Positions 3,747 to 37,994 are shown, counted from the first letter of the stretch. The stretch: 64,000 bases of DNA from Escherichia coli 042 (GCF_000027125.1 NC_017626.1), one strand, 5' to 3'. The notes: a model not told the origin generated them from the letters alone. Translations and numbers: made by a program.

Positions 3747-3780
3747 CTTTTTAGTAAAACAAAGTCTACTAAAGACTATC

Positions 3781-3813
3781 AAGGCCGCACCTCACAAGGG
3801 TTGCGGCCTTTTT
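3781..3813 (+). terminator. intrinsic terminator downstream of ssrA
   Basis: aaGGCCGCAcctcacaagggtTGCGGCCttttt: a GC stem followed by a T-run about 35 nt after the tmRNA 3' end. Confidence 0.7.
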
Positions 3814-3858
3814 CATGTCTAGCAGAGTCTACTGAGAATTGCTAGAAGCTACGCATTA

Positions 3859-3911
3859 TGGGACCCTTATATGGACCCACCGACTGGGTCCAATAATTTG
3901 AGGGTCCAATA
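3859..3911. promoter_or_regulatory. cluster of GGACCC/GGGTCC motifs immediately upstream of int (possible Int/Xis or autoregulatory sites)
   Basis: tGGGACCC (3859-3866). Inverted pair TGGACCCAccgacTGGGTCCA (3872-3892). Direct repeat GGGTCCAAT at 3886-3894 and 3902-3910, ending 3 nt before the int ATG. Confidence 0.3.
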
Positions 3912-3912
3912 C

Positions 3913-5142
3913 ATGGCAAGGCAGACTAAAAAACTCACAGACACTGAAATCAAAAACACCAAACCAGCAGACAAAGAGATCAATCTCTTCGATGGTGATG
4001 GGCTACTGCTACGAATCGCTCCTTCATCAAAAGGAGGGAAGAAGAACTGGTATCTCAGATATCCAGTGCCAGTAACCAAGAAGCGCACCAAGATGAGCTT
4101 GGGTACCTACCCTCACCTCTCATTAGCAAAGGCAAGAGCTTTGCGTGATGAATACCTGTCGTTACTTGCTAATGGTGTTGACCCTCAAGTCCACATCACT
4201 GAAAAAACTAATGCTCTGAAAGATGCCACGGAGCACACGCTACAAGCAGTTTCTCGAAAGTGGTTAGATGAGAAAATTAAGACTTCTGGCATCTCTCTAG
4301 ACCATGCAGAAGATATCTGGCGCAGCCTCGAAAAAAACATCTTTTCAACTCTGGGTGATGTTCCTATCAAAGAGATCCGCCCCAAAATGCTCAAGCAGCA
4401 TCTTGACCCAATTGAGCAGCGCGGTGTTCTCGAAACTCTACGTCGTATAATTTCCAGACTGAATGAAATCTTTCGCTATGCTGCCACGGAAGAGCTTATA
4501 GAGTTCAATCCTGCCGACAATCTCGCTCAGCGTTTCAGTAAACCTAAGAAGCAAAACATGCCTGCCCTTCCACCTGATGAGCTACCACGCTTCATGGTTG
4601 CTTTATCTAACGCATCTATACGGTTAGAAACCCGTATGCTGATCGAGTGGCAATTGTTGACGTGGGTAAGGCCCGGTGAAGCCGTTCGGGCAAGATGGTG
4701 TGATATTGATGAAGAGAGCAGATTTTGGAATATCCCTTCAGAATTCATGAAAATGAAACGCCCACATAAGGTTCCATTGAGTAAAGAAGCTCTCCGCATT
4801 TTAGAAAACATGCGCCCTATCAGTGGTCATAGAGAATGGGTTTTCCCCAGCATCAAAGCTCCCCTCAGTCATATGCATGAACAAACAGCTAATGCAGCCA
4901 TAATTCGTATGGGGTTTGGCGGAGAGCTTGTTGCTCATGGTATGAGATCTATTGCAAGGACAGCAGCCGAAGAATACGGTAAGTTTAGAACGGAGGTGCT
5001 TGAATCCGCTCTGGCTCATACTAAAAAAGATGAAATAATAGCCGCGTATAACCGTTCGGAATACCTAGTTGAAAGAGAAGAACTAATGAAATGGTGGGGG
5101 GATTATGTCAGCAGCAAAAAATATAAGATGATGGCAGCATAA
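3913..5142 (+). CDS. P4-type tyrosine recombinase/integrase
   Basis: The N-terminus MARQTKKLTDTEIKNTKPADKEINLFDGDGLLLRIAPSSKGGKKNWYLRY is the typical P4/IntA-family arm-binding domain. The C-terminal catalytic region has ...VAHGMRSIARTAAEE... and ...ALAHTKKDEIIAAYNRSEY (R..HxxR..Y pattern). ATG 3913 is preferred over the track start 3871. Confidence 0.9.
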   Translation: MARQTKKLTDTEIKNTKPADKEINLFDGDGLLLRIAPSSKGGKKNWYLRYPVPVTKKRTKMSLGTYPHLSLAKARALRDEYLSLLANGVDPQVHITEKTNALKDATEHTLQAVSRKWLDEKIKTSGISLDHAEDIWRSLEKNIFSTLGDVPIKEIRPKMLKQHLDPIEQRGVLETLRRIISRLNEIFRYAATEELIEFNPADNLAQRFSKPKKQNMPALPPDELPRFMVALSNASIRLETRMLIEWQLLTWVRPGEAVRARWCDIDEESRFWNIPSEFMKMKRPHKVPLSKEALRILENMRPISGHREWVFPSIKAPLSHMHEQTANAAIIRMGFGGELVAHGMRSIARTAAEEYGKFRTEVLESALAHTKKDEIIAAYNRSEYLVEREELMKWWGDYVSSKKYKMMAA

Positions 5143-5163
5143 ATAAATTTTAATCATATAATT

Positions 5164-6501
5164 ATGACACAGCATAAGGTGAAAGTAATGAGAATATCAA
5201 AAACATTAGAATCATTATTTACATTTCTAAAGGAAAAAGAGCAGAAAGGTCAACTATTCAATAAAGAGGCTATACTCACAGCCACCGGTTGGAAAGCGGC
5301 TACATTTAGAACTTATTGGGTTAAAGGGCAGTTATCTGACTTTATTAGCGCAATTGATGAAGATACATTTGAGGCATCAAACTGTCAAAACATCTCAGTT
5401 ATAGAGTTTTCGAAACTATTATCTCAAAGTAAGCATAGAAGAGGGTTAGGTCATAATTGCCAGTCGAAACTAGCAAAAGCATTATTAACAAAATCTAGAG
5501 ATAATATGATGCTTGCTCTTGAATTATATAATAGACCTTCAATTGAGAATAGAATGGATGCATTTGTAATGTGTTTTTGCACTTCATGGGAACAATTATT
5601 AAAAGCTATTTTGATTGAAAAAAATGGTGAAGAGTCAATTTTCAAAAAAGAAAACAAGCGAGGATTCAGAGAAACTATTTCACTAAGAGACTGCTTAGAA
5701 AAAACATTCCCATCGAATTCAAAGGTAAGAAATAATATAGAACAAATAACAGTTTTCAGAGATCAGGCTGTACACCTTTTAATGCCAGAAATACAAGGGA
5801 TAGCCTCAAGGATATTTCAGTCTGGCGTTCTTAATTATTCATCATATTTTGAAAAATTCACAGAGGTTTCTTTTCTCAATAACAATAGCACAGGAATGAT
5901 ATCCTTGGTAGGTGAGTTTAGAACACCGCCAATATCCGTACTGAAATCCATTTATGGAGAAGTAGCGACTGATATATTAGACTTAGCAACAACTCTTCAG
6001 CAAGAAGTTGATGATAAAAATGACATAGAGTATGCAATTCCCTTAAATGTAAAACTTGTTTTTGCGACATCAGATGATGATGGGAATACCATAACCTTAG
6101 CTAAAGCTGATGAGGGAATCGAGGGGCTTAAGAAGGCTCTAATTATAGAAAAACCAGTAGATAGATCAAGAACACATCCGTATTTGCAGAAGGATGCCAT
6201 TGAGCATATAAATGAAAAAATCTACGAACTTTATAGTATAGAAAAGATAGAAAAGCATTTAGTATTCAAAGATAACAAAACAGGAAAGAAAGCGATAAAT
6301 AAAAATTGCTTTGATGCTGTTATTTGTAAGAACGGATGGAAAAAATCAAATAATAAATATCATCACAAAAACAATAATCCAGAATACCACTATTATTCAC
6401 CAGCATTAGTAGATGAATTTGTCAAGAAAGCTATGACAAACGAAGATTATCTAATGAATACAAAAAAATGGTATAATGCCAGAAGAAGTAAGAAAAAGTG
6501 A
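5164..6501 (+). CDS. DUF3644-like protein (hypothetical; candidate defence/abortive-infection-associated)
   Basis: 445-aa ORF, very AT-rich. The central segment MMLALELYNRPSIENRMDAFVMCFCTSWEQLLKAILIEKNG...ISLRDCLEKTF...VRNNIEQITVFRDQAVH resembles the DUF3644 pattern as I remember it. ATG 5188 (SD aaggtg) is an alternative start. Confidence 0.6.
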   Translation: MTQHKVKVMRISKTLESLFTFLKEKEQKGQLFNKEAILTATGWKAATFRTYWVKGQLSDFISAIDEDTFEASNCQNISVIEFSKLLSQSKHRRGLGHNCQSKLAKALLTKSRDNMMLALELYNRPSIENRMDAFVMCFCTSWEQLLKAILIEKNGEESIFKKENKRGFRETISLRDCLEKTFPSNSKVRNNIEQITVFRDQAVHLLMPEIQGIASRIFQSGVLNYSSYFEKFTEVSFLNNNSTGMISLVGEFRTPPISVLKSIYGEVATDILDLATTLQQEVDDKNDIEYAIPLNVKLVFATSDDDGNTITLAKADEGIEGLKKALIIEKPVDRSRTHPYLQKDAIEHINEKIYELYSIEKIEKHLVFKDNKTGKKAINKNCFDAVICKNGWKKSNNKYHHKNNNPEYHYYSPALVDEFVKKAMTNEDYLMNTKKWYNARRSKKK

Positions 6502-6835: not shown

Positions 6836-7882
6836 TCATTCCTCAAATCTATATAACGCGCCATCAAGATATTCTTCAACAGTATCTATACCGATCCATC
6901 TTCGGTTCAAACTCTCAGCTACAGCACCGGCAGTCATCGACCCACCAAATGGATCAAGAACTAAATCCCCTTCATCTGTAAGCATTTTAATGAAGAATTC
7001 AGGAAGCTGCATAGGGAAACGCGCAGGATGAATTTTGATACCATTAGCTTTACATTTTTTTGTATAAACGTCATTAGCTGCATTATTACCCATTTTCAAT
7101 ACATCAGACGGTGTTTCATCATCAATAAAATTAGGTGGGATAGACCCTCCATTATGGGTTTTATCAAAAGATTCATTAATATTATGTCCTGATGGTCGAA
7201 CAGTAGTTTTAACACCTTTTGCTGCAAGCCGAAGCATGTCCTTGCTATAAGGACGAAGCACTTTTTTATTACTTGCTTTTGGGTGTGGCCCTTTACTAAA
7301 CCAGAAAACATACTCTACAGAATCCTTCACTCGGACTCGTTTGACTGTAACCCATTGAGCAGGTACAGGCATCTTTGCAGGGTTGTACCAGAAAGTCTCT
7401 TGCGCTAGTCTGAATCCTACTTCCTCAACTAAAGCAATAACTAACTTAAAATGATAGATAGATCTAGTTGGCTCACCGGGATTCCAAGAGCCCCCGATGT
7501 TCAAAACGAAACTGCCATCTTCTGTCAGTATCCTTTTGATTTCTTTCGCAAAATCAACAAACCACTCAACGTAGTCCTTCTGACAGACATTACCATATTC
7601 TTTCTTAAAATGAAGTGCATATGGTGGAGATGTGAAGACTAAGTTAACCGAGTTATCAGGTATTGACTTCATCACGTCTAACGAATCGGCGTGGAAGATC
7701 GAACCCAAGTTAGATTCGTAAAACGGTTCAAACCCGTTGACTAACTTTGTAGTTGAATTTTTCTCTTTTGATGAAAAGTCAAGCGTTTTTTGAATAGTCA
7801 CAACAATAAATCTCGAAATGGGCAATCGGATTGCATTGTTGCGTACATAACACAAGGGATCAAGTACAGATGAACCAACCAC
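6836..7882 (-). CDS. beta-class DNA methyltransferase (N4-cytosine or N6-adenine), type II RM
   Basis: Motif IV VFTSPPY lies near the N-terminus. The AdoMet motif [17 protein letters not shown] lies near the C-terminus, which is the beta-class order. The first codon of the maximal ORF is GTG and the true start is unresolved (no ATG before residue 71). Confidence 0.85.
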
Positions 7883-8559
7883 AGGACTTTACAGCTCTTC
7901 TTAACAGCTTAACTCCTCAAGAGCAGCAAATGCTTTTCACGCAACTTCGCGGAAGAATTCCCATCCATCCTCTTGAACAGCAATGGAATATTACAGCAGA
8001 ATTCATTTTAGAAGCCATTGCGCGAAGCCAAGATATCACGAAACGAGGCGTAAGAGGAATCATTGCAGAGCTATGTTTCGATACATATATCATAGGTGCA
8101 ATGAAACATAAGGGCTGGATACAACATCAACTTTTTGGAGATTTACCCTATGATGCACTGATTTCTCATCCTCATGTCGGGGAAATAAAAATACAAACTA
8201 AAAACCAACGACTTGAACGTGGAGTCCCAAAATACGCAAATGGACCAATGATAAAATTCAATCCATATGTCGAAGGTTGGTATGTTTGCGAAACACAGAA
8301 AACGAGGACAGGAAAAAATGCGGAAGGGTTAGATACGAGGCCATATAGATTTGGTGAGTTTGATATACTATCAGTTTGCCTCCATCCGTCATCGGGTGAT
8401 TGGACACGATTCATGTTTTGCCCTGCATATACACTAATGCCAAGAGCGACAAATCCTGAACTAATTGCTGTTTTACAACCAGTACCACCTACACGACAAG
8501 GAAATTGGACTGATAATCTTGAGGAAGCGATTGAATGGCATTTGAACCGTAATCGTTAA
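7870..8559 (+). CDS. putative type II restriction endonuclease (PD-(D/E)xK-like)
   Basis: Divergent from, and abutting, the methyltransferase. The candidate catalytic motif is LPYD(106)[10 protein letters not shown](117)IK(119)IQTK. No recognisable family beyond this. ATG 7870 is the first ATG (the track ORF starts at TTG 7831). Confidence 0.55.
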
Positions 8560-9204: not shown

Positions 9205-9516
9205 TCACTCCTGCCTCCCAATCATATCCCCAAGAAACCTTTTTCCTCGTAATTTTAATCTTGCTTTATCTTCAATGCTAATATTCGATAATTGTAATAT
9301 CAGTCCTAATATTAACTCCTTATCTACCTCTTCTACTTTACAGCCCATAGCTTTAGCTACCTCAGCACCAAGGATGATCTTCAAGCGTGTCTCTGCGCTC
9401 TTGGATAGAGATTTTTCTTTACTCTTAAGGCGATTCAGACGCATTTGAGCTGATGCTATTTTTTGCTTAATGGTTTTTTCTGATCTCGGCTTTCTACCTT
9501 TATCATCCGTATTCAT
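9205..9516 (-). CDS. TraD-like conjugal transfer / relaxosome accessory protein
   Basis: 103-aa basic protein. ...ETRLKIILGAEVAKAMGCKVEEVDKELILGLILQLSNISIEDKARLKLRGKRFL resembles the small Ti-type TraD family pattern (K-I-x-LG..V.KA.G ... LlG.LL.L). It is divergent from the relaxase gene across an 835-bp hairpin-rich spacer. Confidence 0.5.
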   Translation of the reverse strand: MNTDDKGRKPRSEKTIKQKIASAQMRLNRLKSKEKSLSKSAETRLKIILGAEVAKAMGCKVEEVDKELILGLILQLSNISIEDKARLKLRGKRFLGDMIGRQE

Positions 9517-9937: not shown

Positions 9938-10276
9938 TCCCGCCTTACGGCGAGAGACTAATTTAACTACTTTTGCCCTTACGGGCGTTTTCTAAACACC
10001 AGAATCCAATATTATTATCCTACCTCAACCGTTTATCCGATTCCTACCTTTTTAATTTCACAGTCTGTAAAACTAGAGCTATTATTTAACTATAGAAAAA
10101 CATAAAACATTGTCGTTATTTTTAGCTCCTTTAGGAGATATAAAAATAAAGCAATGCCCACCTATACACTGCTACGCAGTGTGTGGGGTCTACCGACGGT
10201 TGCCTGCCGCAGGCTAACACCGTTTCCTTCGGAAACAAGGTCAACGTCAACACCAGAGTTTTTCTTACGAAAAACT
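9938..10276. other. hairpin-rich region upstream of the relaxase gene (candidate oriT / ssDNA-structure region)
   Basis: CGCCttacGGCG (9941-9952). GCCCttacGGGC (9975-9986). ACACTGCtacGCAGTGT (10166-10182). Nested ACGGT-tGCCTGccgCAGGCtaac-ACCGT (10196-10223). GTTTCCttcGGAAAC (10222-10236). AGTTTTTCttacGAAAAACT (10257-10276). The TTAC loop recurs. Confidence 0.45.
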
Positions 10277-10351
10277 AAAACCAGCTGAGTCGTATTGGAG
10301 ATTTATATTTTGGTTTGATATTTAAATTTATTTTGAGGTTGTTTTTATTAT

Positions 10352-11860
10352 ATGGCTATTTTTCATCTGGATTTTAAAATTGTGAAACGTTCTGAAGGCA
10401 GATCTTCCGTTGCGAAAGCTGCCTATCATGCTCGTACACGTATAACAGATGAAAGAACAGGTGATACCTATGATTATAGTCGCCGTACCGATTTATACGG
10501 ACATTTCATATTAGCACCAATTAATGCTCCAGAACATATCGTGAAAGACTCTACAGCATTGTGGAATGAAGTTGAAAGAGTTGAGCGCCAGAGCAATGGT
10601 CAAACATCCCGTTATTTCGATGTTGCCATACCTGCCGAGTTAAACAATGACGACAAGAAAAGACTTGTCCTTGAGTATTGTCAGAAAAATTTCGTTGATA
10701 AAGGCATGATTGCCGATATCGCTTTCCACGATCTTGATAGCGATAATCCTCATGCTCACGTTATGTTGACATTAAAAACCATAGGCCCTGAAGGTTTTGG
10801 TAAAAAAGAAAGAAGCTGGAACGACAGAAAAATGTCTGTTATATGGCGTGAATCATGGGCATCTATGGCTAACAGCTACCTTGCTGCCGCTGGCTCGTCA
10901 GAACGTATTGACCATCGTTCTCTTCAGGCCCAGCATGAAGAGGCATTAGAAAAAGCGGCGGTAGCTTTAGATAATGAAGAAAAAGCGCTATGGCTTGCTA
11001 AAGCCGCTGAAACAAACCGTCCTCCAATGAAGCGTATCCATAGTGCCAAATGGCGTAGTAAAGCAGCACAAGAGCAAAGAGCAGCAGAACAGGCTGTTCG
11101 TGATGCTGCCAAGCAGGAAGCGGTTGAAGTCTACAAGACTTTCAGCGAACTTGATCTTGAAATCGTCGTTGATGTCAGAAGCTTCACCGTGGCTGCTCTT
11201 GCTGAACCAGAAGAGATTGTATTACCAGAAACGCGCTCCGGCTCTTCTTCTCATGAAGCACAAAGTCCTGTATTGGTAGCGCCTATTCCTCATACTCATG
11301 TGCGTGGAGTTAAATCTTACCGCGATAAAGAAAAAGTGAGTAAAGTTGTCATTAATAATATATCAGAACCAAATGTTGCTGATGCTGACATAAACACTCT
11401 TTGGAAAACATCTCCATCTAAAACCAAAAATATGGCATCCAAAAGTACCGCTGAAAGTGTTAAAAGGAAACAGGCTAATCCGCGTCAGGATAATATCTTT
11501 AAACGCTTTACAACGCTTTTGATCGGTTTCTTCAAAGAGAAATTTATATGGGCTAAGAAGAAACCTGATCCTACCGAGATTGAACATGACAGGCATGTAG
11601 CAGAAAATTACGTCTTTGATGAAGTGCTGGGTGTCTATGTATCACGCGCTGACCATGAACAACGAGCCAGATTCAACGGTGATGATAAAGAGTTCTCTGG
11701 TTACAAGCCAACACCTGATGAGATTAAGCGTTTTCCAAGCCGTCTAGCTAATACAGCACAAACTGATAGAGAGCTCGACTACATGCCTTCGCTCGTGGCT
11801 GATAAGAAATCGTTAGCACCTAAATTGAAACCAAATGCTCCCTATAAAAATAGATTATAA
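10352..11860 (+). CDS. MobA/MobL-family (MOBQ-type) relaxase
   Basis: The N-terminus MAIFHLDFKIVKRSEGRSSVAKAAYHARTRITDERTGDTYDYS carries the catalytic Tyr region. The histidine triad HDLDSDNPHAHVMLT is present. The C-terminal half is low-complexity and no primase or helicase motifs are seen. Confidence 0.88.
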   Translation: MAIFHLDFKIVKRSEGRSSVAKAAYHARTRITDERTGDTYDYSRRTDLYGHFILAPINAPEHIVKDSTALWNEVERVERQSNGQTSRYFDVAIPAELNNDDKKRLVLEYCQKNFVDKGMIADIAFHDLDSDNPHAHVMLTLKTIGPEGFGKKERSWNDRKMSVIWRESWASMANSYLAAAGSSERIDHRSLQAQHEEALEKAAVALDNEEKALWLAKAAETNRPPMKRIHSAKWRSKAAQEQRAAEQAVRDAAKQEAVEVYKTFSELDLEIVVDVRSFTVAALAEPEEIVLPETRSGSSSHEAQSPVLVAPIPHTHVRGVKSYRDKEKVSKVVINNISEPNVADADINTLWKTSPSKTKNMASKSTAESVKRKQANPRQDNIFKRFTTLLIGFFKEKFIWAKKKPDPTEIEHDRHVAENYVFDEVLGVYVSRADHEQRARFNGDDKEFSGYKPTPDEIKRFPSRLANTAQTDRELDYMPSLVADKKSLAPKLKPNAPYKNRL

Positions 11861-12097: not shown

Positions 12098-12628
12098 ATG
12101 TCAACTCCTGAGGATGCTTTCAAAAAAAAATTACTAGCTGCTCAACAAGAAAAAGATGAACTTGTTAGGAAAAATCAAATTGATGCAGAGCGTAAAAAAC
12201 AAATCATTGCTGAAAAAATTAGTTTTTATCAAAAACACCAAAATGATTTCATACAACAAGTTATTGAATGGGCCAGTAGTGCAGATTTAAATATCTCATC
12301 ACTTAACATTAGTTATTACGATTATGGTCATTTATTTCAAACAACAGGCATAAGCATTGAATATGATGGTAAAAAAGTTCAGTTTATTCCGCAAGGAGTA
12401 GAACGTGGAACTTTTCTAGGTATCATAAAATTAGATTTTACTAACGCAAATTCATTCATTCAATACTATTTCGGTTTGTCTGCCAATAAAAATGAAGCCG
12501 AACCATATTGGACTTTTGTTCAATATGATACTCAAAACCCTAGTGCTTGGCAGGAAAACTCAAAGCGCATGTCAAAAGAGCTATTCTTTGAAATAATTGA
12601 AAGTATATTACTTCCACCAAAATCATGA
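12098..12628 (+). CDS. hypothetical protein (N-terminal coiled coil)
   Basis: 176-aa ORF with an SD-like gaggt upstream, followed by a 10-bp-stem hairpin. No family recognised. Confidence 0.6.
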   Translation: MSTPEDAFKKKLLAAQQEKDELVRKNQIDAERKKQIIAEKISFYQKHQNDFIQQVIEWASSADLNISSLNISYYDYGHLFQTTGISIEYDGKKVQFIPQGVERGTFLGIIKLDFTNANSFIQYYFGLSANKNEAEPYWTFVQYDTQNPSAWQENSKRMSKELFFEIIESILLPPKS

Positions 12629-12640
12629 ATATTGAATATT

Positions 12641-12667
12641 AGAAAAGCACTCAAGCAGTGCTTTTCT
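12641..12667. terminator. hairpin terminator after 12098..12628
   Basis: AGAAAAGCACtcaagcaGTGCTTTTCT: a perfect 10-bp stem whose arms supply the A and T runs. Confidence 0.6.
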
Positions 12668-12947
12668 AAATACCATACTCATTTCATTATAAATGAACCT
12701 CGATTTTAATAATTTATACCCTGCCCCCATAATCTTTAATTGCCATATTTATTAATACTGAGATTTAAGCTGTGAGATATATATTTAATATAAAACCACG
12801 ATCGTGTGATAAGACGTTTTCTATATTTACTGGAAATATTAAAATCAAACTCTCCGCTTAAACATAACATTATCATTTATGCCTTGCTATTGGTAAGTAT
12901 TAATTTTTTATCTATACAAGAATCTATTATTCAGATAAAGATTCATC

Positions 12948-29521: not shown

Positions 29522-29889
29522 TTTTTCCTCAACTCATTCACAGCAATTTGCGGAAGCGTCAATACTGACTTAAGACTTACTTCAATTCGACTGATGATTG
29601 CTTCTCGTGGGCCACTACGCCAACCCGCACTTGCGTAGAAATCATCAAGAATGCTTTTCATCTGTTCTTCACTTTCAAAAGCCCGTATGAGGTAGTAGCT
29701 GTCAGCATCGTGCAGAGAGTTTCCATACGCAACCACATCTATACCGTTCCGGGTATGAAGTGGAACACTGACTTCATACATGATCTGATGGAACTCCTCA
29801 CCAGAATCTTTTTTCAGGGTGTATTGTAGTATTTCGACGATCCTATCCTTCATACCTTCTCCATCAATGACCATGAGAAACTGTTTCAA
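29518..29889 (-). CDS. NIPSNAP-like / dimeric alpha-beta barrel protein
   Basis: ...DRIVEILQYTLKKDSGEEFHQIMYEVSVPLHTRNGIDVVAYGNSLHDADSYYLIRAFESEEQMKSILDDFYASAGWRSG... fits the NIPSNAP-type pattern as I remember it. The start may be an internal Met. Confidence 0.5.
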   Translation of the reverse strand: MKQFLMVIDGEGMKDRIVEILQYTLKKDSGEEFHQIMYEVSVPLHTRNGIDVVAYGNSLHDADSYYLIRAFESEEQMKSILDDFYASAGWRSGPREAIISRIEVSLKSVLTLPQIAVNELRKK

Positions 29890-30248
29890 TGACGCTAACG
29901 CATTCGGTAGGTTAAATGAAGAAAAGCTGACGCAGAGGATGTGAGTTCAACTTCGAGTAGGTAGCTGAACTGTTGAATGTGTTATCTTTCAGCATTGTTT
30001 GACGTCAAACGTTCAGCAGTTTCGCTAAATGGTTCCACAATTGAACCCTTAATTAAAAATTAAATCAAAATTCCAATATAAATCAATTTATTAAAGCACT
30101 AATTACAGGGACGCCAGCCAATCATGATTGGACGGTGCAAGGACAACACCAACAAAAACAGGAAGTTAGAAGTCTCAGCAAGACACCGACCAGACGGTGA
30201 GGAGACATAAAAGGATACGCAAAGGAGCCGCGGCTCCTGGTGATATGA

Positions 30249-30272
30249 AAGCCCACAGATGTGGGCTTTTTC
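30249..30272 (+). terminator. intrinsic terminator (plus-strand orientation), abutting the ypjA stop
   Basis: aAGCCCACagatGTGGGCTttttcg. The T-run is on the plus strand only. Confidence 0.7.
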
Positions 30273-30280
30273 GTTGATGG

Positions 30281-33200
30281 TTAGAACGACCAGTTCACAC
30301 CAGCTACCGCGTTCCACGGGGATTCCACACCGGCACCATGGCTATACCCCACCCCGAGATGCCCGCTTAATGAACTGCTGAATGAGGCTTTAATACCTGC
30401 CTGGTATATTCCACGTCTGCCCGACAAATCATTGACAAAATTACCGTCATTATTCACTTTCACCCGGTTATCATCGACAAATTCTTTGCGCACAGCCGCC
30501 TTCAGCCACGGCTCAACTTCCATACCGTTCCCCAGACGCATGTTGTAACTCAGCGTTGCGCCCAGTTCACGATATATACTGCGGGTATCGACTGATTTCG
30601 ATTCCATGCCATTGGATAAATGATATTCGGGGTTATCAGCGGTGAACCCCGTTAACGATGCATACGGCGTCAGGTTCCAGTTACCATCGGTAAATCGCAT
30701 CCCGGTTTCAATGTGACCGCCCAGCCCGTTGCTGCGATAACTGCCGTTGGCGGCTCCACCGCTGCTCATTTTACCGGCTACGTTACTTTCAAAACGGTTC
30801 AGCTTCACGATACCGTCCAGATAGAAACCACTTTCATGTTCCCAACTGGCATAGCCGCCCAGAGAATAACTGCCCACACTGCCATGTCCTCCGCGATCAA
30901 AACCGATATGTGAATGGGAATAACCCATAAAAGCGCCCAGCGTGGCAATTCCTTCAGGAATATCATTACGGCTGTCGATCCCCACGGTCATTCCGGTCAG
31001 CGTCTGCTCAAACCCGGCACCCGCATCGGTGGTGACATTATTACGGGTGTTATACGTCGCCCCCCAGACATTATTGTTGTGTGGACTCGCTTTCATTATG
31101 TTCAACCGCTCGCGAATACTGTTTAGCTCAGCATCAAATACCAACGGTAATGTTGCTGCCATATTGAGTACGGCTGCCGTAGAAGGCGTGATGCGTTTCT
31201 CCGGGACGGGTGTCGGCGTTGGATCGGGAGTCGGGTCTGGTTTCGGATCCGGTTTTGGGTCTGGTTTTGGATCCGGTTTCGGATTTGGGTTGGGGTCCGG
31301 GTTGGGTTTGACATCATTGGTCAGGTTCCAGTTGCTGTTGCCGTCGCTTTTCAGGACATACTCATAGGTCCCAAGATCAACGAAACCGCCGGTATTACCC
31401 AGCGTAAACGAAGCATCCCCTCCCCCTGTTTTCACCAGCGTCATCGCGTCGTCAGACTGAGGGCTGACGCCGGTATCCTGAACAAAGATTTTAAAATTAC
31501 CAGTGGCGTTGTTGTTGACGACCAGTTGATCGCCCCGGGAGCCTGCAACGTTGGTATGCAGGTAGAAATTACCGCTGCCGGAAAGTTCACTGGTGGTCAG
31601 CGTATTGTAGATACCGTTAGTTGTGGCAGGCGCTGCTGTTTGTGCTGATAAATAAACATCACCGTCGTTGAGAAGCAAACTGTTTACTCTATATTCGCAG
31701 TTGCTGGTGCCTGCACAGGAATTATTGCTGTTAAGCCAGACACTGCCCCGGCTGGCAGCCGTCAGGTCGGCAAGCGTCGTATCGACGCCATTTCCGATAG
31801 TTAATGTCGCGCTATCGGTAATCCGGACCACCCCTTCAAGTTTAACTGGCGTAACATTATCCCGTGGCGTCATTAACGACAGGCTTCCTGTCGCGCCACT
31901 GACCGATGCATCCGCCAGCGTACCTGCGTAGACGATTGCCGTCCCGCCAGCGATCAGTAGATCTTCTGCCCGGGCCAGAGCCTGAAACTCATCTTTTGAC
32001 CGACCGAGGGTATATTGCCCACCGGAATTAACCTTTGTGGCGAAGTCCTGACCCAGGTTTTGCATTGCCCCACCGTTGCCAACCGTGGAATCGCGAGCTT
32101 CGGTACCTGCTAATACCAATAAATTACCGCCATTTTCCAGCAGCACATTGGTCGCTAAATTTCCGGCAATGGAAAAGGTGCCGTACTGGTGAGTACCGCT
32201 GATTTCAATACCGTTAGCCGTGCTCGTCTGGAGAGCGGCACCGCTGTTCTGGATGATATCTGTCGCTTTGCCATTATCGTTGACTGTCAGCGTACCGCCT
32301 TCATTAATCGTTGTTTTTACTGCCTCACCGTTAGCCGAAACTGTTTGTATTCCGCCGTCGTTAATCGTTGTCTCATTCGCCACCCCCTCGACGATTTGTT
32401 CGCCGCCGGTGAGCGTCGTGCCTGTCGCAGTGGCTTTTGTTTTGACGATCTCCCGCCCGCCCGCATTGACCTGTGTTTTGGCGGAAGTGGTGTCTGACTC
32501 CACGGTTAACACGCCGCCATTTGCCAGCAGGATATTGTTCGCCGCATCCTGCTCAATGCTGAACGCGACGCCATCAGCGCGTGTCCCTGTGACCCGCGTC
32601 GCTCTGGTGGTTGCAACCAACGCGCCCTGGCTACTTTGCTGTATCCCCGTTGCGCTGCCTTTCTCCCGCACATCGAGAGTGCCGCCTTCATTAAGCACCG
32701 AGTTTTCAGCCAGACCGCCCTCATTAACTACCTGTGAACCGCCATTAATAATGGAACCTTCCGCTGTCCCGTTTACCATAATTTGTTGTAGGCCAGAGAC
32801 GATATCGGTATTGATCGCCTTACCATAATTCTGAACGGTTTGCGTACCGCCATTGATGTGCGTTTTGTCTGTTGACCCACCATCAACAATTTGTTCACCA
32901 CTTTCAATATTTGCATCAGTGGCTAAACCATATACCGTTTGCTTGCCACCTTTGATATTTGCTTTTTCAGAAGTGGCACTGGCATATATTGTTTGGGTAC
33001 CAGCACTATTAAGTACAGTACCAACATCTTTTCCATAAACATCCATTTTGCCGTTGGCATTAATAATCGTGTCAACTGCCCGGGAACCAGTGACGACTGT
33101 TAATGAGCCAGCGTTTTCCAGCACTACATTTTTAGCTTCTGAATTCCTGATGTAGAAAACATCACCATAACTGTTGGTTCCTTCGATAAGTGTTCCGGAA

Positions 33201-34855
33201 GTCGTGGAAGCAATTAATGCGCCGCCGGATTGTTGCTCAACATGCTTAGCCTCACCACCGTCCTGAACCTCCAGAACGCCACCATTATTAAGTCTGATGG
33301 TATCTGTTTTAGCCTCCTTCTGGACAATCAGCTTACCGCCAGCATCAACGGTAGTATTTTTCGCCGAGGTTTTAGCCATTACCGTCAGTTCGCCGGTATT
33401 TTCCAGCACAACATAATTAGCCTCTCCTCCGGTAATAGTGAAGTGAGAGAGCTTGTTGTATCCTTCGATATCAGTCCCTGCGCCCGTGTTGGCAACTAAA
33501 GCACTGCCCGTCTCCTGGTTAACCCCATGTGCAATACCGCCGGTATAGACAATCAGCGAGCCTCCGGCGCTAATATTGCTGCCAGTTGCCGTACCATCTT
33601 TCTCAACAACCTGCCGGCTCCCAGAGGATATATTTGTCGTGTCAGCTTTCCCGCCGCTCTTGATATTTTGTGTTCCGCTGTTGATATTGGTGCCCGTGGC
33701 AATACCATAATTATTAATATTCTGTGTGCCACCATTAATTATGGTATTTGTCGCTTTTCCGGCAACATCCATAACGCCGCCATTATCTATTCGGGTCGCA
33801 TCAGCTTTAGCATTCGTTAAAACTGACATTGTTCCTTTATCTTTAATAATCGTCTTATTTGCCGAACCATATGCGTTTATGTCTAAATGACCACCGTTTT
33901 CCAGCAACACATTCTCTGCCACGGTATTGTGGATGGAGAATGCCCCTTCACTATTCGTACCGCTCACCGTCGTACCGTTAGTGTTTGTTTTTAAAATTGC
34001 ACCATCGTGCTGGGTAACATTTGTTGCCGTACCACCACTAACATCAAGCACGCCACCGGAATAAACTTCAATAACATCCGAGGTGCTGGTGTAATCAACA
34101 ATTTGCGTACCACCAGAATAGATCTGAGTATTTTTTGCCGTTGACTTACTATTCAGAGACTGAGTTCCGCCTTCAATCGTCGTGTCCAGCGCACGGCTCT
34201 CATATACTCTTTGCTCACCGCCATTTTTAATGGTGGTTGTTTCTACTGTGCTCTGTTCAACATACTGTCGACCACCATTTATGGTTGTGTTCGTCGCCAG
34301 ACTTCCTTGCGTGATGTCCTGATAACCGGACTTATTTATCGTTGTACCATCAACATGCCCCTGAGTTGATACTGACTGGCCTCCACCATCAATGATTGTT
34401 CCATTTGCAGTCCCCCCCTCTATGCGTGAAGTACCGCCCTTAATTGTCGTGTCATTGCTGGTACCACCTTTATAAACATATTGATTACCACTTTCGATTA
34501 TCGTGCCAGTAGAAATTCCTCCGTACTCAATTGACTGTCTGCCTCCATTAATGGTTGTATTATTAGCTTGCCCGTTAATATCGGCATGGATTGATACTAG
34601 TTGCTCGCCACCAGTTTCAATAATACTACTATTAGATATCCCACCATAGACCTCCTGCCGGCCATGGTTGATAATATGTGTGTTATTTGTTGTACCTCGT
34701 TCATCTACTCGTTGGTTGCCATCTACAGTCTCATCGTTTACCACACCAATAACATTAGTAGTGAAGGCCGCCATCCCGGGCTGGGCATATATTAAGGCAG
34801 ATATCAATAAGGAAAGTACTGAGCGGCGAAAATAATAGGGACTGGTCCTGTTCAT
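30281..34855 (-). CDS. ypjA: AIDA-I/Ag43-type autotransporter adhesin (YpjA-position orthologue)
   Basis: From ATG 34855: MNRTSPYYFRRSVLSLLISALIYAQPGMAA signal peptide. About 1000 aa of imperfect roughly 19-aa beta-helix repeats (…GG.Q.V..GG.A..T.I..GG…). A Pro-rich linker PNPDPNPNPKPDPKPDPKPDPKPDPTPDPTPTPVP. A C-terminal beta-barrel ending ...GVESPWNAVAGVNWSF. It occupies the same chromosomal position as K-12 ypjA. Confidence 0.85.
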   Translation of the reverse strand: MNRTSPYYFRRSVLSLLISALIYAQPGMAAFTTNVIGVVNDETVDGNQRVDERGTTNNTHIINHGRQEVYGGISNSSIIETGGEQLVSIHADINGQANNTTINGGRQSIEYGGISTGTIIESGNQYVYKGGTSNDTTIKGGTSRIEGGTANGTIIDGGGQSVSTQGHVDGTTINKSGYQDITQGSLATNTTINGGRQYVEQSTVETTTIKNGGEQRVYESRALDTTIEGGTQSLNSKSTAKNTQIYSGGTQIVDYTSTSDVIEVYSGGVLDVSGGTATNVTQHDGAILKTNTNGTTVSGTNSEGAFSIHNTVAENVLLENGGHLDINAYGSANKTIIKDKGTMSVLTNAKADATRIDNGGVMDVAGKATNTIINGGTQNINNYGIATGTNINSGTQNIKSGGKADTTNISSGSRQVVEKDGTATGSNISAGGSLIVYTGGIAHGVNQETGSALVANTGAGTDIEGYNKLSHFTITGGEANYVVLENTGELTVMAKTSAKNTTVDAGGKLIVQKEAKTDTIRLNNGGVLEVQDGGEAKHVEQQSGGALIASTTSGTLIEGTNSYGDVFYIRNSEAKNVVLENAGSLTVVTGSRAVDTIINANGKMDVYGKDVGTVLNSAGTQTIYASATSEKANIKGGKQTVYGLATDANIESGEQIVDGGSTDKTHINGGTQTVQNYGKAINTDIVSGLQQIMVNGTAEGSIINGGSQVVNEGGLAENSVLNEGGTLDVREKGSATGIQQSSQGALVATTRATRVTGTRADGVAFSIEQDAANNILLANGGVLTVESDTTSAKTQVNAGGREIVKTKATATGTTLTGGEQIVEGVANETTINDGGIQTVSANGEAVKTTINEGGTLTVNDNGKATDIIQNSGAALQTSTANGIEISGTHQYGTFSIAGNLATNVLLENGGNLLVLAGTEARDSTVGNGGAMQNLGQDFATKVNSGGQYTLGRSKDEFQALARAEDLLIAGGTAIVYAGTLADASVSGATGSLSLMTPRDNVTPVKLEGVVRITDSATLTIGNGVDTTLADLTAASRGSVWLNSNNSCAGTSNCEYRVNSLLLNDGDVYLSAQTAAPATTNGIYNTLTTSELSGSGNFYLHTNVAGSRGDQLVVNNNATGNFKIFVQDTGVSPQSDDAMTLVKTGGGDASFTLGNTGGFVDLGTYEYVLKSDGNSNWNLTNDVKPNPDPNPNPKPDPKPDPKPDPKPDPTPDPTPTPVPEKRITPSTAAVLNMAATLPLVFDAELNSIRERLNIMKASPHNNNVWGATYNTRNNVTTDAGAGFEQTLTGMTVGIDSRNDIPEGIATLGAFMGYSHSHIGFDRGGHGSVGSYSLGGYASWEHESGFYLDGIVKLNRFESNVAGKMSSGGAANGSYRSNGLGGHIETGMRFTDGNWNLTPYASLTGFTADNPEYHLSNGMESKSVDTRSIYRELGATLSYNMRLGNGMEVEPWLKAAVRKEFVDDNRVKVNNDGNFVNDLSGRRGIYQAGIKASFSSSLSGHLGVGYSHGAGVESPWNAVAGVNWSF
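31200..31315 (-). repeat. short tandem repeats encoding the (K/T)PDP proline-rich linker
   Basis: ggatccggttttgggtctggttttggatccggtttcggatttgggttggggtccgggttgggt: 6- and 12-nt periodic units within the autotransporter gene. Confidence 0.7.
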
Positions 34856-35252
34856 AAATTTCATCCTCTGAAAAGTGAATACTGAGTAGCGTTTAAGCGA
34901 CCTTAGCTTTGCTGCAACATCAGCCCACAGGCACCAGACCAGGGGATTCATCCTGAAGAGACAGCGCAAGTGTATTGTGTTCACCGCTCATCAAAGACAT
35001 CATGATGAAATGATGATATTCCGCATAAGAATGAGGCATTTTTTTAAGACATTGTGCTGAAGGATGATTGGATAAAAAAGTCAATCTTTTCAGGAAATAC
35101 GGCGTATTCTTTTCTTTCGACATTGAAGCCGTCGGAAAAATAAAATGATTTACATAATCGTTTCTGATGAATATCTTCTGCTCACATAAAAATCACACAA
35201 TAACATTGAGATTGCAGATTGTTTTACTTTTACAGCTTTCGTCCCCTCATTG

Positions 35253-35381
35253 TTGGGCAAATATTGGTAGAGTCAGAGCACGAAAGTTAATACCACGTTC
35301 GCACAGCTCCTCCAACAGCACGGCAAGATGCCGCATACTGCGCCCCAGTAGGTTCAGTTTGCAGACAACCAGTGTGTCACC
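35253..35381 (-). pseudogene. pinH: serine recombinase/invertase fragment (pinH-like remnant)
   Basis: The minus strand translates to [43 protein letters not shown]. This is the central segment of Pin/Hin/resolvase-type recombinases (…GDTLVV.KLDRLGRS..HL…L..RGI.F.SL). The N- and C-termini are missing. Confidence 0.75.
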
Positions 35382-35384
35382 TAC

Positions 35385-35515
35385 CGATAATGTCCTGAGC
35401 CGTTTGTTCAGTCCGGCCCTGCTGCCACGGTTTTACGTTGAAGTGGTAACCCTGAGCACGCAGTTCATCAGTCAGGCATGGTGCACCATAACGCTGTTGT
35501 TGCTGGGTAAGATCA
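35385..35515 (-). mobile_element. IS3-family transposase (OrfB N-terminal) fragment fused to the pin remnant
   Basis: The minus strand translates to ...[25 protein letters not shown]..., the characteristic YGxxR(L/I)t.eLr..G...n.k segment of IS3-family OrfB. It is frameshifted thereafter and no IS ends are visible. Confidence 0.6.
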
Positions 35516-35618
35516 AAAAACTTTCAGGCAGCTAAGGAAAGTTGAATCAGACATTAGATGAAATATTTCAACCAATTACAGCACCAATTTAAACTCAGTA
35601 AATCACAGCGCAGATCAA

Positions 35619-35650
35619 GGGGTTACGTGAAAGCGTAGCCCCTTTTTCTT
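35619..35650 (+). terminator. orphan intrinsic terminator (plus strand)
   Basis: GGGGTTACGtgaaagCGTAGCCCCtttttcttt: a 9-bp stem including one G-T pair, then a T-run. No intact plus-strand gene lies upstream. Confidence 0.55.
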
Positions 35651-35788
35651 TGGTAGTAGCAGCAAAATGGTTGTAGTGTAAAAAATAATCCCGTTTAATC
35701 AATCAATAATACATATTGTTTCAATCTACGTTATTATCTCTTTGTAAAACCTGCAGTTTATTTATCATTGAAAACTGCTTTTAGAACT

Positions 35789-37243
35789 TTATACAAGGGG
35801 ACGATTCTCAATGGGACTATCCTCAGGGGAATTTTCCTCAGAGGAACTATCATCAAAGTCATCATCCATAGATGAAATACCATCGAATGGTGCCACGCCC
35901 GTGATTAGTTTTATTTTATTATTACGATCAGTCAAGACTCCATTTAAACCATTTTCGCTGACGGATTTTAATAATTTATCATAACTCTTATTGTCATCAG
36001 GCACATTAAAAACACACGGAGTATCAACATCAAACAATGACGTTCCCCAGTTCACATATTGAATATCATAGTTACTGAAGTTCTGTCCAGAAAAGAAGCA
36101 TCCCTTAAAATCCAATCCACGTAAATTATATAAACCACCCTCTTCTTTTGGGAGAGCAATTTTAATTCTGGCTATCTCCCAGACAAAATTGCCATTTTTG
36201 TATTTGAATACCGTTTCAAGCTCTCCTCCAGACAACTTGACTTCTGGAAATAATTTGAAATTAAACCCTACATTATTATGTGTCAACGTAGATGAACAAA
36301 AGATGGAAAAAGCTTGCAGTGCTGAATTATAGCTATCGATTTTATCTTGAGGCTGCGCTCTTGGTAAAAACTTATAGCAACACTCATAAAAATTAAGTAG
36401 AAACTCTGATGACCTTCCATTTTTATCAAATAATACCCGCTGAAAATGCTGCACAAACTTATTCGTTTTTTCTTGAATATCTATGGTGTGTTCCTTTGAC
36501 TCTAACAAAGATGAATCCTGTTGAAGTGCATTGCTCATCTGGTTGAGGAACAACTGCATTTCTTTCAACTTATCTCCATAGTGACCTTTAACTTGCTGAG
36601 AATTTTTAGTTACAGTTGAAACCTTATCTGTGTGGTTTTCATATAAATTATGTGATTCCATACAGTCATTTGGCGGCGTTTCTGAAATAACACTACGCGT
36701 TCTACCTGGCTGAAGTGAAGCAACATGAAAATCACTTTTTCTTATATTGCCGAATAGGGTCTGTTCATTTCTCTTAGCGCATTCAATAAACTGATCAACA
36801 TTATTTTTATTAGATGACAGGTTAATTTCAGAAACCGCATTTTCTTTGTTCTCCAGCTTTAGTTTAACGAGAAGGTCTTCCCACACCGTTTTTTTTTAAA
36901 ATACTACGTCAGGCTCACCATCAGCAACTAACTCTTGATTATTATCAAAGTGTACGTTGTGTACTTTTAATTTATTTTCATTAGCATCATATTTAATACG
37001 TTTTAATTGTTCTCCGGCTCCCATAATGACAAAAGCATTGCCTTCATGATATTTACATTCAGACATCATTTTTTGTAAAATTTCAAGAGCACCGTTATAC
37101 GTCCCTGAGGCAGCTTCTTTACAAATTAATTTTATAATACCATAAGCTAGTAACTCCATGGATTTAGAAGATTTTCTTTCATTACAATTTCCACTATTTA
37201 TAAATGTGCTAGTGTTAATTTCGTTGCTTTTACTAACTAACAT
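35789..37243 (-). pseudogene. large hypothetical gene (ypjB/ypjC position) split by a single in-frame TAA into 115-aa and 365-aa ORFs
   Basis: ORF 36896..37243 ends ...GAC GTA GTA TTT TAA. The same frame continues AAA AAA ACG GTG TGG GAA... into ORF 35789..36886, whose first codon is GTG. The stop is created at a T4A9 tract (36889-36901). The C-terminal part has a pentapeptide-repeat-like stretch (LRGLDFKGCFFSGQNFSNYDIQYVNW) and an acidic tail. Confidence 0.6.
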
Positions 37244-37781
37244 TGTCTTTTCCTCAGTTAATGTCTACATGGCTATTTTTAATGTTATTATTGTTTGTCA
37301 CTATAAAAAATCGCTCATTTGAGACAATTGCTGGCATTAACAGCTTCATATGCTATACATGGTACTTTTAATTAATTTAGCACAAGAATGTTAAATTTAA
37401 TAAGCAAAAGGTTATTTCACTGTATGATAAAAACCACCCGTTATAATTTATTCGTGAGAATCGTTTTTTGAGTGTTAGAAATTTATATCTAAATAGCGTT
37501 GATTAATGACCAAAGCCAGACTCCTGTAATGCTCACAAGACTCTTCTGCATTCGACGGCGGTTCTAGTCAGTAGTAGATGTTTAAGGCGTGGCAGAGACA
37601 TTTCATCCTTACTCTAAGGCATTGTTCTACATACATTGGTCGTGGTACTCACTCAGCATAAGTGAGCGAAAAGAGAATAGTTCAGTGATTTGAGTAATTA
37701 ACCTGATTAAATGAAGGGGTATAATAAATGATAATACTCTGTCTTTATCGTTAATTACTTAATTCCACATGTAAGCAATTT

Positions 37782-37808
37782 GCCCGCTTGGCATAGCGGG
37801 CATTTTTT
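37782..37808 (+). terminator. orphan intrinsic terminator (plus strand) in the ypjC-side/ileY spacer
   Basis: GCCCGCttggcataGCGGGCatttttt. Confidence 0.65.
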
Positions 37809-37994
37809 CCAGGTACTTTTGAATGAGTACTGATGGATAAATACATTGCAGTGGCGTGCCACGTACCAAAACACCAGCCCTCATTCGAAACCACCCACCA
37901 CACTTCTTCCTTGAAATGGCGTTAGTCGTGAAATATAGACCGCCATCGAGTACCCCTTGTACCCTTAACTCTTCCTGATACGTGAATGATGATT

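Follow-up and report, generated by a model that had tools for sequence, protein, structure and literature searches.

What occupies the interval between ssrA and ileY in Escherichia coli 042, the interval in which K-12 carries CP4-57, and is it one insertion or several? The question was addressed in a window of 64,000 nucleotides (GCF_000027125.1, NC_017626.1), which is the whole stretch of DNA analysed and is numbered here from its first letter. The integration target ssrA, encoding tmRNA, lies at 3384-3746 on the plus strand and ileY, a tRNA-Ile2 gene (CAT anticodon) whose identity is taken from context, at 37995-38070 on the minus strand; ARAGORN and Rfam place their 3' ends at 3746 and 37995, pointing toward each other, as an initial annotation of the window had stated. 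That annotation treated the 34 kb between the two genes as a single accessory mosaic, and its inventory of modules (an integrase, a DUF3644/restriction-modification islet, a mobilisation and replication block, an AlpA-led array, ypjA, pinH/IS3 remnants and a split gene) proved accurate by Pfam. The interval in fact consists of two unrelated parts, a 26.4-kb element at 3747-30120 and 7.9 kb of accessory DNA at 30121-37994, and does not form a single mosaic. We propose, with a probability of roughly 0.8, that 3747-30120 is one integrative mobilizable element (IME), in which the backbone of the ROD21/EARL islands has been joined to a different, ssrA-specific integration module of the P4 type.

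The limits of the element were read from a blastn comparison of the window with the ssrA-gabD region of MG1655, an alignment that the initial annotation had recommended. The match breaks off exactly at the last base of ssrA (3746) and restarts at 30118, the base after the 14-nt psaA pseudogene of K-12, which is the attR of CP4-57; from there it runs at ~94% identity across ypjA, pinH, ypjB/C, ileY, ygaQ and glaH. Between 3747 and 30117 blastn gave no match to CP4-57 DNA, so the earlier statement that the CP4-57 cargo is not there holds. The int and alpA genes, which had been taken for CP4-57 equivalents, are not leftovers of it, their products being 49% and 31% identical to IntA and AlpA of K-12. 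In many E. coli, strain MRSN346638 for example, ssrA is followed directly by ATCATGATTGG and ypjA, and the ypjA side is therefore not part of the ssrA insertion. Both ends of the element coincide with this single empty site, and it fills exactly the slot of CP4-57 in K-12, with the same boundaries. The GC content is 37.7% in 3747-30120, 49.2% in ypjA, 36.4% in 34985-37994 and 50% (left) and 51.7% (41101-64000) in the flanking core. All 34 kb are accessory, to differing degrees, but they do not form one block, since 30121-37994 is shared with K-12 and most E. coli. A copy of the element 99.5% identical to that of 042 is found at ssrA in E. coli AHB1. AHB1 is without window 30272-41006 (ypjA through ygaQ, ileY included) and has 320 bp of other sequence instead; its right junction was considered as the end of the element and rejected, since AHB1 carries this secondary ypjA-ygaQ deletion beyond attR.

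The backbone of the element was assigned by protein comparison with a tRNA-Asn EARL island, that of E. coli Ec-042-T5. Identities are 75% for MobQ, 75% and 83% for the two lipoproteins, 74% for H-NS, 54% for TraD, 52% for AlpA, 34% for DUF6387 and 32% for both the RepL-like protein and the integrase; the backbone is therefore homologous and the integration module is not. The gene order agrees with the description of the EARL islands and with the gene table of ICEKp258.2 (PMC6035254, PMC10763509). The element shares with them a MOBQ relaxase with TraD and a full-length and a truncated H-NS (H-NS being frequent, not universal, in EARL islands), and its alpA and its 867-bp DUF6387 gene adjoin attR, as in EARL islands a conserved gene of ~843-850 bp (DUF6387) accompanies the recombination directionality factor (RDF) (PMC6035254). 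By definition, an EARL island occupies the 3' end of tRNA-Asn and has conserved direct repeats of 24-37 bp (PMC6035254). The element falls outside that strict definition (tRNA-Asn site, 24-37 bp repeats, ROD21-type integrase promoter), but its backbone clearly makes it a member of the wider family. At ssrA, this combination of backbone and integrase is met again as a unit in six or more further species. The initial annotation had held that a well-annotated island with defined attachment sites and characterised cargo would overturn its mosaic; half of this was found, in that the family is described, but only for tRNA-Asn, and most of the cargo is uncharacterised. Our literature search found no paper on an ssrA-integrated ROD21-like island or on the DotA/TraY and TraW genes of such islands, and the RefSeq names of the element's genes are generic.

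The genes expected of an IME are present and intact. The P4-type tyrosine integrase of the ssrA-specific clade is encoded at 3913-5142 on the plus strand (ORF open from 3871) and matches Pfam Arm-DNA-bind_3, Phage_int_M and Phage_integrase. At the opposite end lie, all on the minus strand, the gene of an AlpA-family putative RDF (28281-28499; Pfam Phage_AlpA, 9.5e-18), the DUF6387 gene (28655-29521; Pfam 1.1e-47), whose product is 34-41% identical to its EARL and serU homologues, and a small NIPSNAP-like gene (29518-29853). SEN1998 of ROD21 has been characterised as an RDF (PMC8844411). The mobilisation genes comprise a Ti-type TraD (9205-9516, minus strand; Pfam TraD, 7.1e-13), which is a small relaxosome accessory protein and not a coupling protein, and a MOBQ relaxase (10352-11860, plus strand; Pfam MobA_MobL, 1.7e-56; NCBIfam MobQ, 1.6e-77). 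A candidate origin of transfer (oriT) was located at 10150-10290 on the plus strand, 60-200 nt upstream of mobQ; within it the inverted repeat CCTATACACTGC/GCAGTGTGTGGG (10161-10187) is accompanied by another hairpin, and it is the most conserved part of the TraD-MobQ spacer in 12 elements, the divergent serU-type ones included. No VirB4/TraU-type ATPase and no coupling-protein domain was detected in 30 ORFs by Pfam or in 10 by NCBIfam. The combination of a relaxase and TraD with no VirB4-type ATPase, coupling protein or core-complex genes would make the element an IME, not an integrative and conjugative element (ICE); the ICE reading was considered and rejected, there being no complete type IV secretion system among the ORFs scanned, only the DotA/TraY and TraW-like proteins described below. 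The transfer, excision and replication-like genes are all intact ORFs and are 75-98% conserved in relatives.

The distribution of the element was surveyed in 5,426 complete E. coli genomes. The segment containing the integrase and attL occurs in 65 of them and the right-end segment in 66, whereas the TraW-DotA-RepL block is found in 192, 64 of these at a coverage of at least 80%; in E. coli carriers the element is nearly always at the same locus. Relatives of the integrase were then sought by a scan of one genome per species, which gave 80 loci. Proteins of 80-89% identity are encoded in Serratia, Yersinia, Klebsiella, Citrobacter, Enterobacter, Kluyvera, Dickeya, Pantoea, Photorhabdus and others, and the integrase clade adjoins ssrA in ~45 other Enterobacterales species, in which the attL sequence is kept. 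In most of the 50 loci scanned for the position of tmRNA, the integrase gene begins ~166 nt past the tmRNA gene, as it does in the window. TraD and/or MobQ homologues lie within 10 kb past the integrase in six species. At some other ssrA loci AlpA comes within 7-10 kb of the integrase, and the islands at these loci are therefore short. Several ssrA loci in other Enterobacterales are tandem arrays in which a second copy of the ssrA 3' end, partial or full (15 to at least 40 nt), precedes an integrase of this type; the element is therefore often second in line behind another ssrA island.

The attachment sites give the exact ends of the element. The attL core is the last 14 nt of ssrA (CGCCAGCTCCACCA, 3733-3746, plus strand), after which comes the element arm CTTTTTAGTAAAAC; attL thus reads CTCCCGCCAGCTCCACCA up to the junction and CTTTTTAGT beyond it, and the empty site reads CGCCAGCTCCACCA and then ATCATGATTGG. 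On the right, comparison with the empty site of MRSN346638, with the K-12 attR and with relatives places attR at 30095-30120 (plus strand), composed of the element arm TAATTACAGGGA and the core remnant CGCCAGC-CA, so that the junction reads TAATTACAGGGACGCCAGC-CA and then ATCATGATTGG. The degenerate attR sequence ACAGGGACGCCAGC-CA spans 30105-30120, at the same chromosomal junction as psaA of K-12; of the TCCACCA expected here the first 5 nt are missing, and chromosomal ATCATGATTGG comes next. This remnant was detected only through alignment to K-12, the empty site and relatives, as searches of the window for a repeat of the ssrA 3' end gave no exact match of 12 nt or longer and no 24-mer with up to three mismatches. 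The initial annotation was right that there is no clean repeat of the ssrA end, but a remnant of attR does exist at 30105-30120; the search that it advised with the ends of both genes gave no repeat of either.

Comparison of attR among relatives revealed a deletion series anchored at one position. The arm ACAGGGACGCCAGC (ACAGAGA in one locus) is kept in the E. coli relatives and in Serratia, Kluyvera, Klebsiella, Pantoea and Erwinia, and past it stands a suffix of TCCACCA from which n nucleotides are missing, counted from the CGCCAGC boundary, with one irregular exception. The value of n is 1 in PA45B, 400625, SaT040 and two other species, 3 in CFSAN061763 and a Klebsiella, 4 in MS 21-1, a Kluyvera and a Pantoea, 5 in the window, AHB1, MLI104K1 and EC36, and 8 in E500002 and KC-Dl-1. 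The attR of CP4-57 in K-12 (CGCCAGC-CCACCA) corresponds to the n=1 state. The n=5 allele is found with three different flank haplotypes, and neither simple vertical descent nor a single event therefore fits. Excision of CP4-57 leaves ssrA without T357, which inactivates tmRNA, and an equivalent single-nucleotide deletion is known for CP4So in Shewanella (PMC10107115); the loss of T357 is the first step of the deletion series and places the crossover at or left of CGCCAGC. Excision of the copy in 042 is probably blocked by the 5-nt loss from attR, and if it took place would be predicted to leave the 3' end of ssrA five bases short, with part of the acceptor stem gone. Our best guess for the anchoring of the deletions at one position is abortive cleavage by the integrase followed by repair, with survival of the locked-in copies.

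Two proteins of the element resemble subunits of the conjugation machinery of I-type plasmids. The gene at 19949-22609 (minus strand) encodes a polytopic inner-membrane protein of the DotA/TraY family with ~8 hydrophobic segments, which matches NCBIfam TIGR04346 (2.3e-125) above the cut-off of that model, 100 bits, and is collinear with IncI TraY over 750 aa (22% identity, E 5e-23). An 87% match on a supposed plasmid (CP088875.1, "plasmid pF17EC0245-1", 393 kb) was set aside as probably a mislabelled chromosome fragment; the stretch of CP088875.1 examined carries chromosomal genes (the ybt island, mtfA, zinT and msrQ) and a serU island. The gene at 18325-19575 (minus strand) encodes a secreted TraW-like protein of 417 aa with a signal peptide and no transmembrane (TM) segment, named "TraW family" by RefSeq (IncI TraW being the equivalent of IcmX and VirB5). 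A profile search of 1.84 billion representative sequences returned 109 relatives of it, including P0044 (6.7e-58) and P0087 (1.3e-16), and several of these match IncI1 TraW by BLASTP at ~1e-11 (1.9e-11 for P0044 and 4.8e-12 for P0087); homology of the TraW-like protein to TraW is supported transitively, through these intermediates. A tblastn search of plasmids with the TraW-like protein gave nothing real, the single match being a chromosome fragment deposited as a plasmid, and an AlphaFold2 model built from an alignment of 25 sequences was unusable (pLDDT 38). A third gene (22626-23150, minus strand), always upstream of the DotA/TraY gene and kept next to it in the relatives examined, encodes a secreted or membrane-anchored protein of 174 aa with an N-terminal hydrophobic segment and no family match.

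In reviews, TraY of plasmid R64 is equated with DotA and VirB6, and TraW with IcmX and VirB5; the central channel of the Dot/Icm machine is described as pentameric and formed by DotA and IcmX (PMC12624023, PMC12857230). Transfer of R64 and of pCTX-M3 requires both TraY and TraW, and TraY is the partner of ExcA in the entry exclusion of I-type plasmids (PMC6112013). PilV and a pilin, encoded by the thin-pilus genes of I-type plasmids, are present in the Asn- and serU-type sister islands; in the element of 042 no type IV pilin or PilV was matched by Pfam or NCBIfam in the genes scanned, and none is named by RefSeq in the AHB1 copy. From the TraY/TraW pair and from the PilV and pilin of the sister islands, we infer that the island family exploits I-type conjugative plasmids.

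Next to this block are genes that may serve replication or maintenance. The gene at 23471-24235 (minus strand) encodes a RepL-like putative replication or maintenance protein; it has no direct Pfam match and is 29-32% identical (E ~1e-18) to proteins of serU- and Asn-type islands that pass the Pfam RepL cut-off. It is followed by an AT-rich non-coding hub of 1.46 kb (24236-25692), in which a repeat search identified a candidate origin or operator region: four CTGACTn6AGTCAG repeats at 21-bp spacing (24402-24481), three to four TTATAGn5CTATAAC repeats at 22-bp spacing (25394-25477) and, between these iteron-like arrays, two 42-nt repeats lying 141 nt apart (24949-25131), each with the palindrome AGTGATTGTT...AACAATCAC. 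The 21-bp array is kept in all six close relatives examined and the 22-bp array in five of the six. The protein encoded beyond the hub (25693-26391, plus strand; 232 aa) has winged helix-turn-helix (HTH) matches of the replication-initiator type, namely DnaD_N (0.0013), HTH_36 (0.0015) and phrog_345 "replication initiation O-like" (0.0017), all of them under the curated cut-offs. Two H-NS paralogues are also encoded: a full-length one of 135 aa (17098-17505, plus strand; Pfam Histone_HNS_N, 4.4e-25, and Histone_HNS, 2e-16), with 74-76% identity to its counterparts in EARL and serU islands, and a truncated one of the H-NST type (26423-26662, minus strand; Pfam Histone_HNS_N only, 2.9e-17), which consists of the N-terminal oligomerisation domain alone and has 69-76% identity to the short H-NS that serU islands encode.

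The life cycle that we propose for the element runs as follows. The integrase and the AlpA-type factor would recombine attL with attR to give a circle, which the RepL-like protein and the iteron-like arrays may sustain for a while. MobQ and TraD would introduce a nick at an oriT within the conserved block ahead of mobQ, and a conjugative plasmid in the same cell would then provide the type IV secretion system by which the DNA leaves. That helper would probably be of the I type (MPF_I), because the island has homologues of TraY (DotA) and TraW (IcmX) and its sister islands have PilV and pilin. H-NS and its truncated form may tune the silencing of the AT-rich island, and the variable spots would bear anti-phage cargo, represented here by DUF3644/PDC-S19 and by a type II methylase whose partner is possibly a nuclease. 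EARL islands do excise, and transfer of ROD21 has been reported (PMC6035254).

Several observations weigh against the IME proposal. An intact attR repeat was seen in 0 of 18 interpretable junctions of relatives, and attR of the copy in 042 has only 7+2 nt in common with ssrA; with no clean attachment pair, the mobility of the integrase clade has to be argued from its distribution. The attP junction of an excised form gave 0 matches in metagenome contigs. A looser attP pattern matched 72 loci in viral contigs, all of them by chance. The nick motifs of RSF1010 and Ti have no convincing match in the TraD-MobQ spacer, and the RepL-like and initiator-like assignments are weak. The DotA/TraY protein is ~20-27% identical to TraY of IncI/L/M-type plasmids and has no close relative on plasmids; the link to TraW depends on an intermediate sequence, a direct hhalign comparison with IncI1 TraW being weak (E 0.047). 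The type of the helper plasmid is a guess.

A rival explanation, a mosaic built in place by serial insertions of unrelated pieces, with no life as a unit, would suit the strongly different cargo of relatives at several spots, and an integrase lineage other than that of the Asn-type EARL islands does mean that modules have been exchanged in the history of the family. Such a mosaic would not, however, have a backbone collinear throughout with the described EARL islands, stand with the same integrase at ssrA in six or more other species, fit a single empty site with both ends and show a uniformly low GC content, and we regard it as quite improbable. The initial annotation had offered fixation or serial building as its two choices; fixation agrees with the eroded attR, and serial insertion is contradicted by the collinearity and by the recurrence of the element as a unit. 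Hardly any weight can be given to a cryptic prophage or satellite of the CP4-57 or P4 kind that has decayed and swapped its cargo. The integration site and right junction of CP4-57 are shared, and the integrase is of the P4 type (49%) and accompanied by an AlpA-family gene, but there is no nucleotide similarity to CP4-57 in 3747-30117, Pfam, PHROGs and NCBIfam found no phage or P4-type genes in the element and the relaxase, TraD, DotA/TraY and TraW homologues stand in their place, and alpA lies at the far end by the DUF6387 gene, as in EARL, not by int, as in CP4-57.

A fixed and domesticated defence or regulatory island, whose transfer genes are relics and whose spread in E. coli proceeds only by homologous recombination of the flanks, is a serious prospect, to which we give slightly less than even odds. 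It would explain an attR short of five core nucleotides, the same allele in three further elements (two of them only ~92% identical in the right-end segment), the lack of any attP junction among the contigs searched and the nearly constant locus in E. coli. The intact and conserved transfer, excision and replication-like genes speak against it, as does the presence of the integrase with the backbone at ssrA in many species, which requires recent site-specific integration; it moreover concerns this copy only and is compatible with a mobile family. A further alternative touches the DotA/TraY and TraW-like proteins, which might serve not the transfer of the island itself but as a barrier or decoy against incoming I-type plasmids, or in some other envelope function. 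Their great distance from plasmid TraY and TraW, the several other island-specific envelope proteins encoded alongside and the partnership of TraY with the exclusion protein ExcA in I-type plasmids (PMC6112013) would be in keeping with such a role. Their genes are linked to the relaxase/oriT module and, in sister islands, to PilV and pilin of the same plasmid type, a pattern that fits exploitation of a helper better than defence, and we consider the barrier function unlikely.

What was an accessory mosaic is now a defined element whose two ends are exactly placed and whose anti-phage genes vary by strain, and the ROD21/EARL backbone is not tied to tRNA-Asn, having at least four integration modules (tRNA-Asn, serU, leuX and ssrA). 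An IME with only a DotA/TraY and TraW (IcmX) pair, which recent structures put at the centre of type IVB machines, would offer a direct way of learning which plasmids mobilise this large family of islands, and the anchored attR deletion series would extend the switch known from CP4-57, in which excision inactivates tmRNA, to a whole island clade. Two linked ideas may be added, which taken jointly are speculative and more doubtful than not. The island's DotA/TraY and TraW (IcmX-like) proteins might replace the central channel and tip of an I-type plasmid machine (IncI/K/B/O/L/M-like); such a hybrid machine would favour the island and escape TraY-mediated entry exclusion of the ExcA type, and sister islands would do likewise by means of PilV and pilin. 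The attR of ssrA islands might, moreover, be progressively chewed back from a fixed point after CGCCAGC, the putative position of strand cleavage. Excision would then hand the tmRNA gene a truncated 3' end, ssrA would be held hostage and the island locked in; this would give an advantage to a different ssrA-targeting element that takes its place and restores the gene, and would explain an element in the CP4-57 slot with the same scar. The island is fairly ordinary for E. coli, except for its two channel proteins and for an attR eroded from an anchored position.

The cargo genes lie at fixed spots. The product of the gene next to the integrase (5188-6501, plus strand) is a DUF3644 protein (Pfam, 5.5e-47) and a candidate defence protein, PDC-S19, by PADLOC (2.6e-68); its C-terminus has a weak Pfam match to the restriction endonuclease-like family EC042_2821 (0.0034, under the cut-off of that family). 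By analogy of position, the gene appears to sit in the slot of "SpnT" in ICEKp258.2 (PMC10763509, Table 1). It is followed by the gene of a type II N6/N4 DNA methyltransferase (6836-7801, minus strand; Pfam N6_N4_Mtase, 5.5e-43; PADLOC MTase_II, 2e-102) and, divergent from it, by a gene at 7870-8559 (plus strand) for a protein of 229-242 aa with no family match and no PADLOC assignment, which, judging from the arrangement only, is possibly the restriction partner of the methylase. A second cargo spot (12098-13292) holds two small genes (12098-12628, plus strand; 12948-13208, minus strand) without matches in Pfam, PADLOC or PHROGs; in relatives this spot is taken either by ApeA or by a reverse transcriptase together with an HTH and a TIR protein. 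The variable spots are those between int and TraD, after MobQ, around TraW/DotA and before the small-gene array, and in relatives with the same backbone they hold differing genes, among them a Dcm-type methylase with an ATPase, ApeA, a reverse transcriptase with an HTH protein, TIR, GmrSD, DUF4365 and DUF3800. Variation is confined to these cargo spots of a collinear backbone.

The remaining backbone genes have few assigned functions. Three envelope proteins are encoded on the minus strand: a membrane protein with five TM segments, judged from its hydrophobic segments (13380-14030), and two lipoproteins recognised by their lipoboxes (14047-14601, a "SEN1982-family" lipoprotein after the RefSeq name of the AHB1 copy, and 14616-15194). 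The plus-strand genes at 15536-18066 have no assigned function except for that of H-NS (Pfam) and include, at 17518-18066, one for a protein with three TM segments. An array of four small conserved genes (26732-28101, minus strand), recognised from the ORFs and RefSeq, has no family matches and is found as the same array in relatives.

The DNA on the other side of attR, 30121-37994, is older, partly decayed accessory DNA that K-12 also has, and it does not belong to the element. The block from pinH through ypjCB to ileY is present at a coverage of at least 80% in 3,024 of the 5,426 E. coli genomes (at least 56%), and the 3' flank of ypjA matches 4,816 of them, a count that may include ypjA paralogues. 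The ypjA gene (30281-34984, minus strand) encodes an intact AIDA-type autotransporter adhesin (Pfam AIDA, Pertactin and Autotransporter). Just upstream of it, 34985-35234 matches the ymgJ region in many genomes of E. coli at ~83-85% identity, a likeness that suggests a paralogous autotransporter-upstream region. A fragment of the pinH invertase gene (35250-35432, minus strand; Resolvase, 2.3e-8) abuts a fragment of an IS3-family transposase gene (35380-35523, minus strand; HTH_21, 0.0039, a weak match), and RefSeq places an incomplete "recombinase family protein" at the position of the pinH fragment in relatives. The split gene is ypjCB (35789-37243, minus strand; DUF5507 and DUF5508 by Pfam), which is interrupted by one in-frame TAA at 36893-36895 and is intact, with 484 aa, in CFSAN061763. 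About 100 bp of it (36515-36614) are absent from K-12, where that deletion separates ypjB from ypjC, unlike the nonsense codon here. An ileY-integrated island with surviving attachment sites at 30-38 kb was also considered and is unsupported, as no repeat of the ileY 3' end occurs anywhere in the window. Beyond ileY the AT-rich zone continues at 38071-41100 (36.6% GC) through ygaQ, which is an intact ORF for an alpha-amylase-like protein of 750 aa (38630-40882) and a pseudogene in K-12. Further downstream, Rfam reports naRNA4 (nucleoid-associated non-coding RNA 4, CssrE) at 46305-46381 with 70.4 bits, above the gathering score.

Among known systems the element is most naturally compared with the ROD21/EARL islands, represented by ROD21 of Salmonella Enteritidis, ICEKp258.2 of K. 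pneumoniae ST258 and IE3 of EPEC E2348/69. It resembles them in its size of ~26 kb and low GC content, in the P4-type integrase at one end and the AlpA-type RDF with DUF6387 at the other, in TraD with the MOBQ relaxase, the lipoprotein pair, the RepL-type gene and the full-length and truncated H-NS, and in a DUF3644 gene at the "SpnT" position by the integrase, with restriction-modification cargo. It differs in being inserted in ssrA, with attachment sites that share only CGCCAGC and CA, whereas EARL islands lie in tRNA-Asn with repeats of 24-37 bp; in having next to attL, in place of a ROD21-type (SEN1970-like) P4-family integrase, one of the ssrA-linked clade that is only 32% identical to that of the E. 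coli tRNA-Asn EARL island; and in having no PilV/pilin pair but a DotA/TraY and a TraW-like protein, which are absent from the accounts in the EARL papers.

The serU island of B2 E. coli (the tcpC island; ATCC 25922, H22) has the same backbone, and that of H22 encodes a DotA/TraY protein of 87% and a TraW-like protein of 80% identity along with RepL, H-NS, short H-NS, AlpA and DUF6387; it differs in its tRNA-Ser site, in an unrelated integrase at the opposite end, and in its PilV/pilin and its TIR or TcpC cargo. At leuX, E. coli DEF10 has the same backbone, ~95% identical over the TraW-DotA-RepL block, and the right end of its island contains the fragment GTTCGAGTCCGGCCTTCGCACCA, read as the 3' end of leuX; with this island at another site, the backbone has therefore swapped integration modules. 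CP4-57 shares with the element the target, the right junction and a shortened attR core, together with a related integrase and an AlpA-family gene, but has no cargo and no nucleotide similarity in common with it, has its alpA next to intA and is without relaxase, TraD, DotA/TraY, TraW and H-NS genes; conversely, the element has neither an IntA orthologue nor yfj/rnlAB/cbtA-type cargo. SGI1-type islands are IMEs that re-tool the mating apparatus of an IncC helper with their own versions of its subunits. Like them, the element of 042 would be an IME that encodes, together with a relaxase or oriT, variants of a few subunits of the mating apparatus; it differs from them in integration site, relaxase family and helper type, the helper and the substitution of subunits both being putative here.

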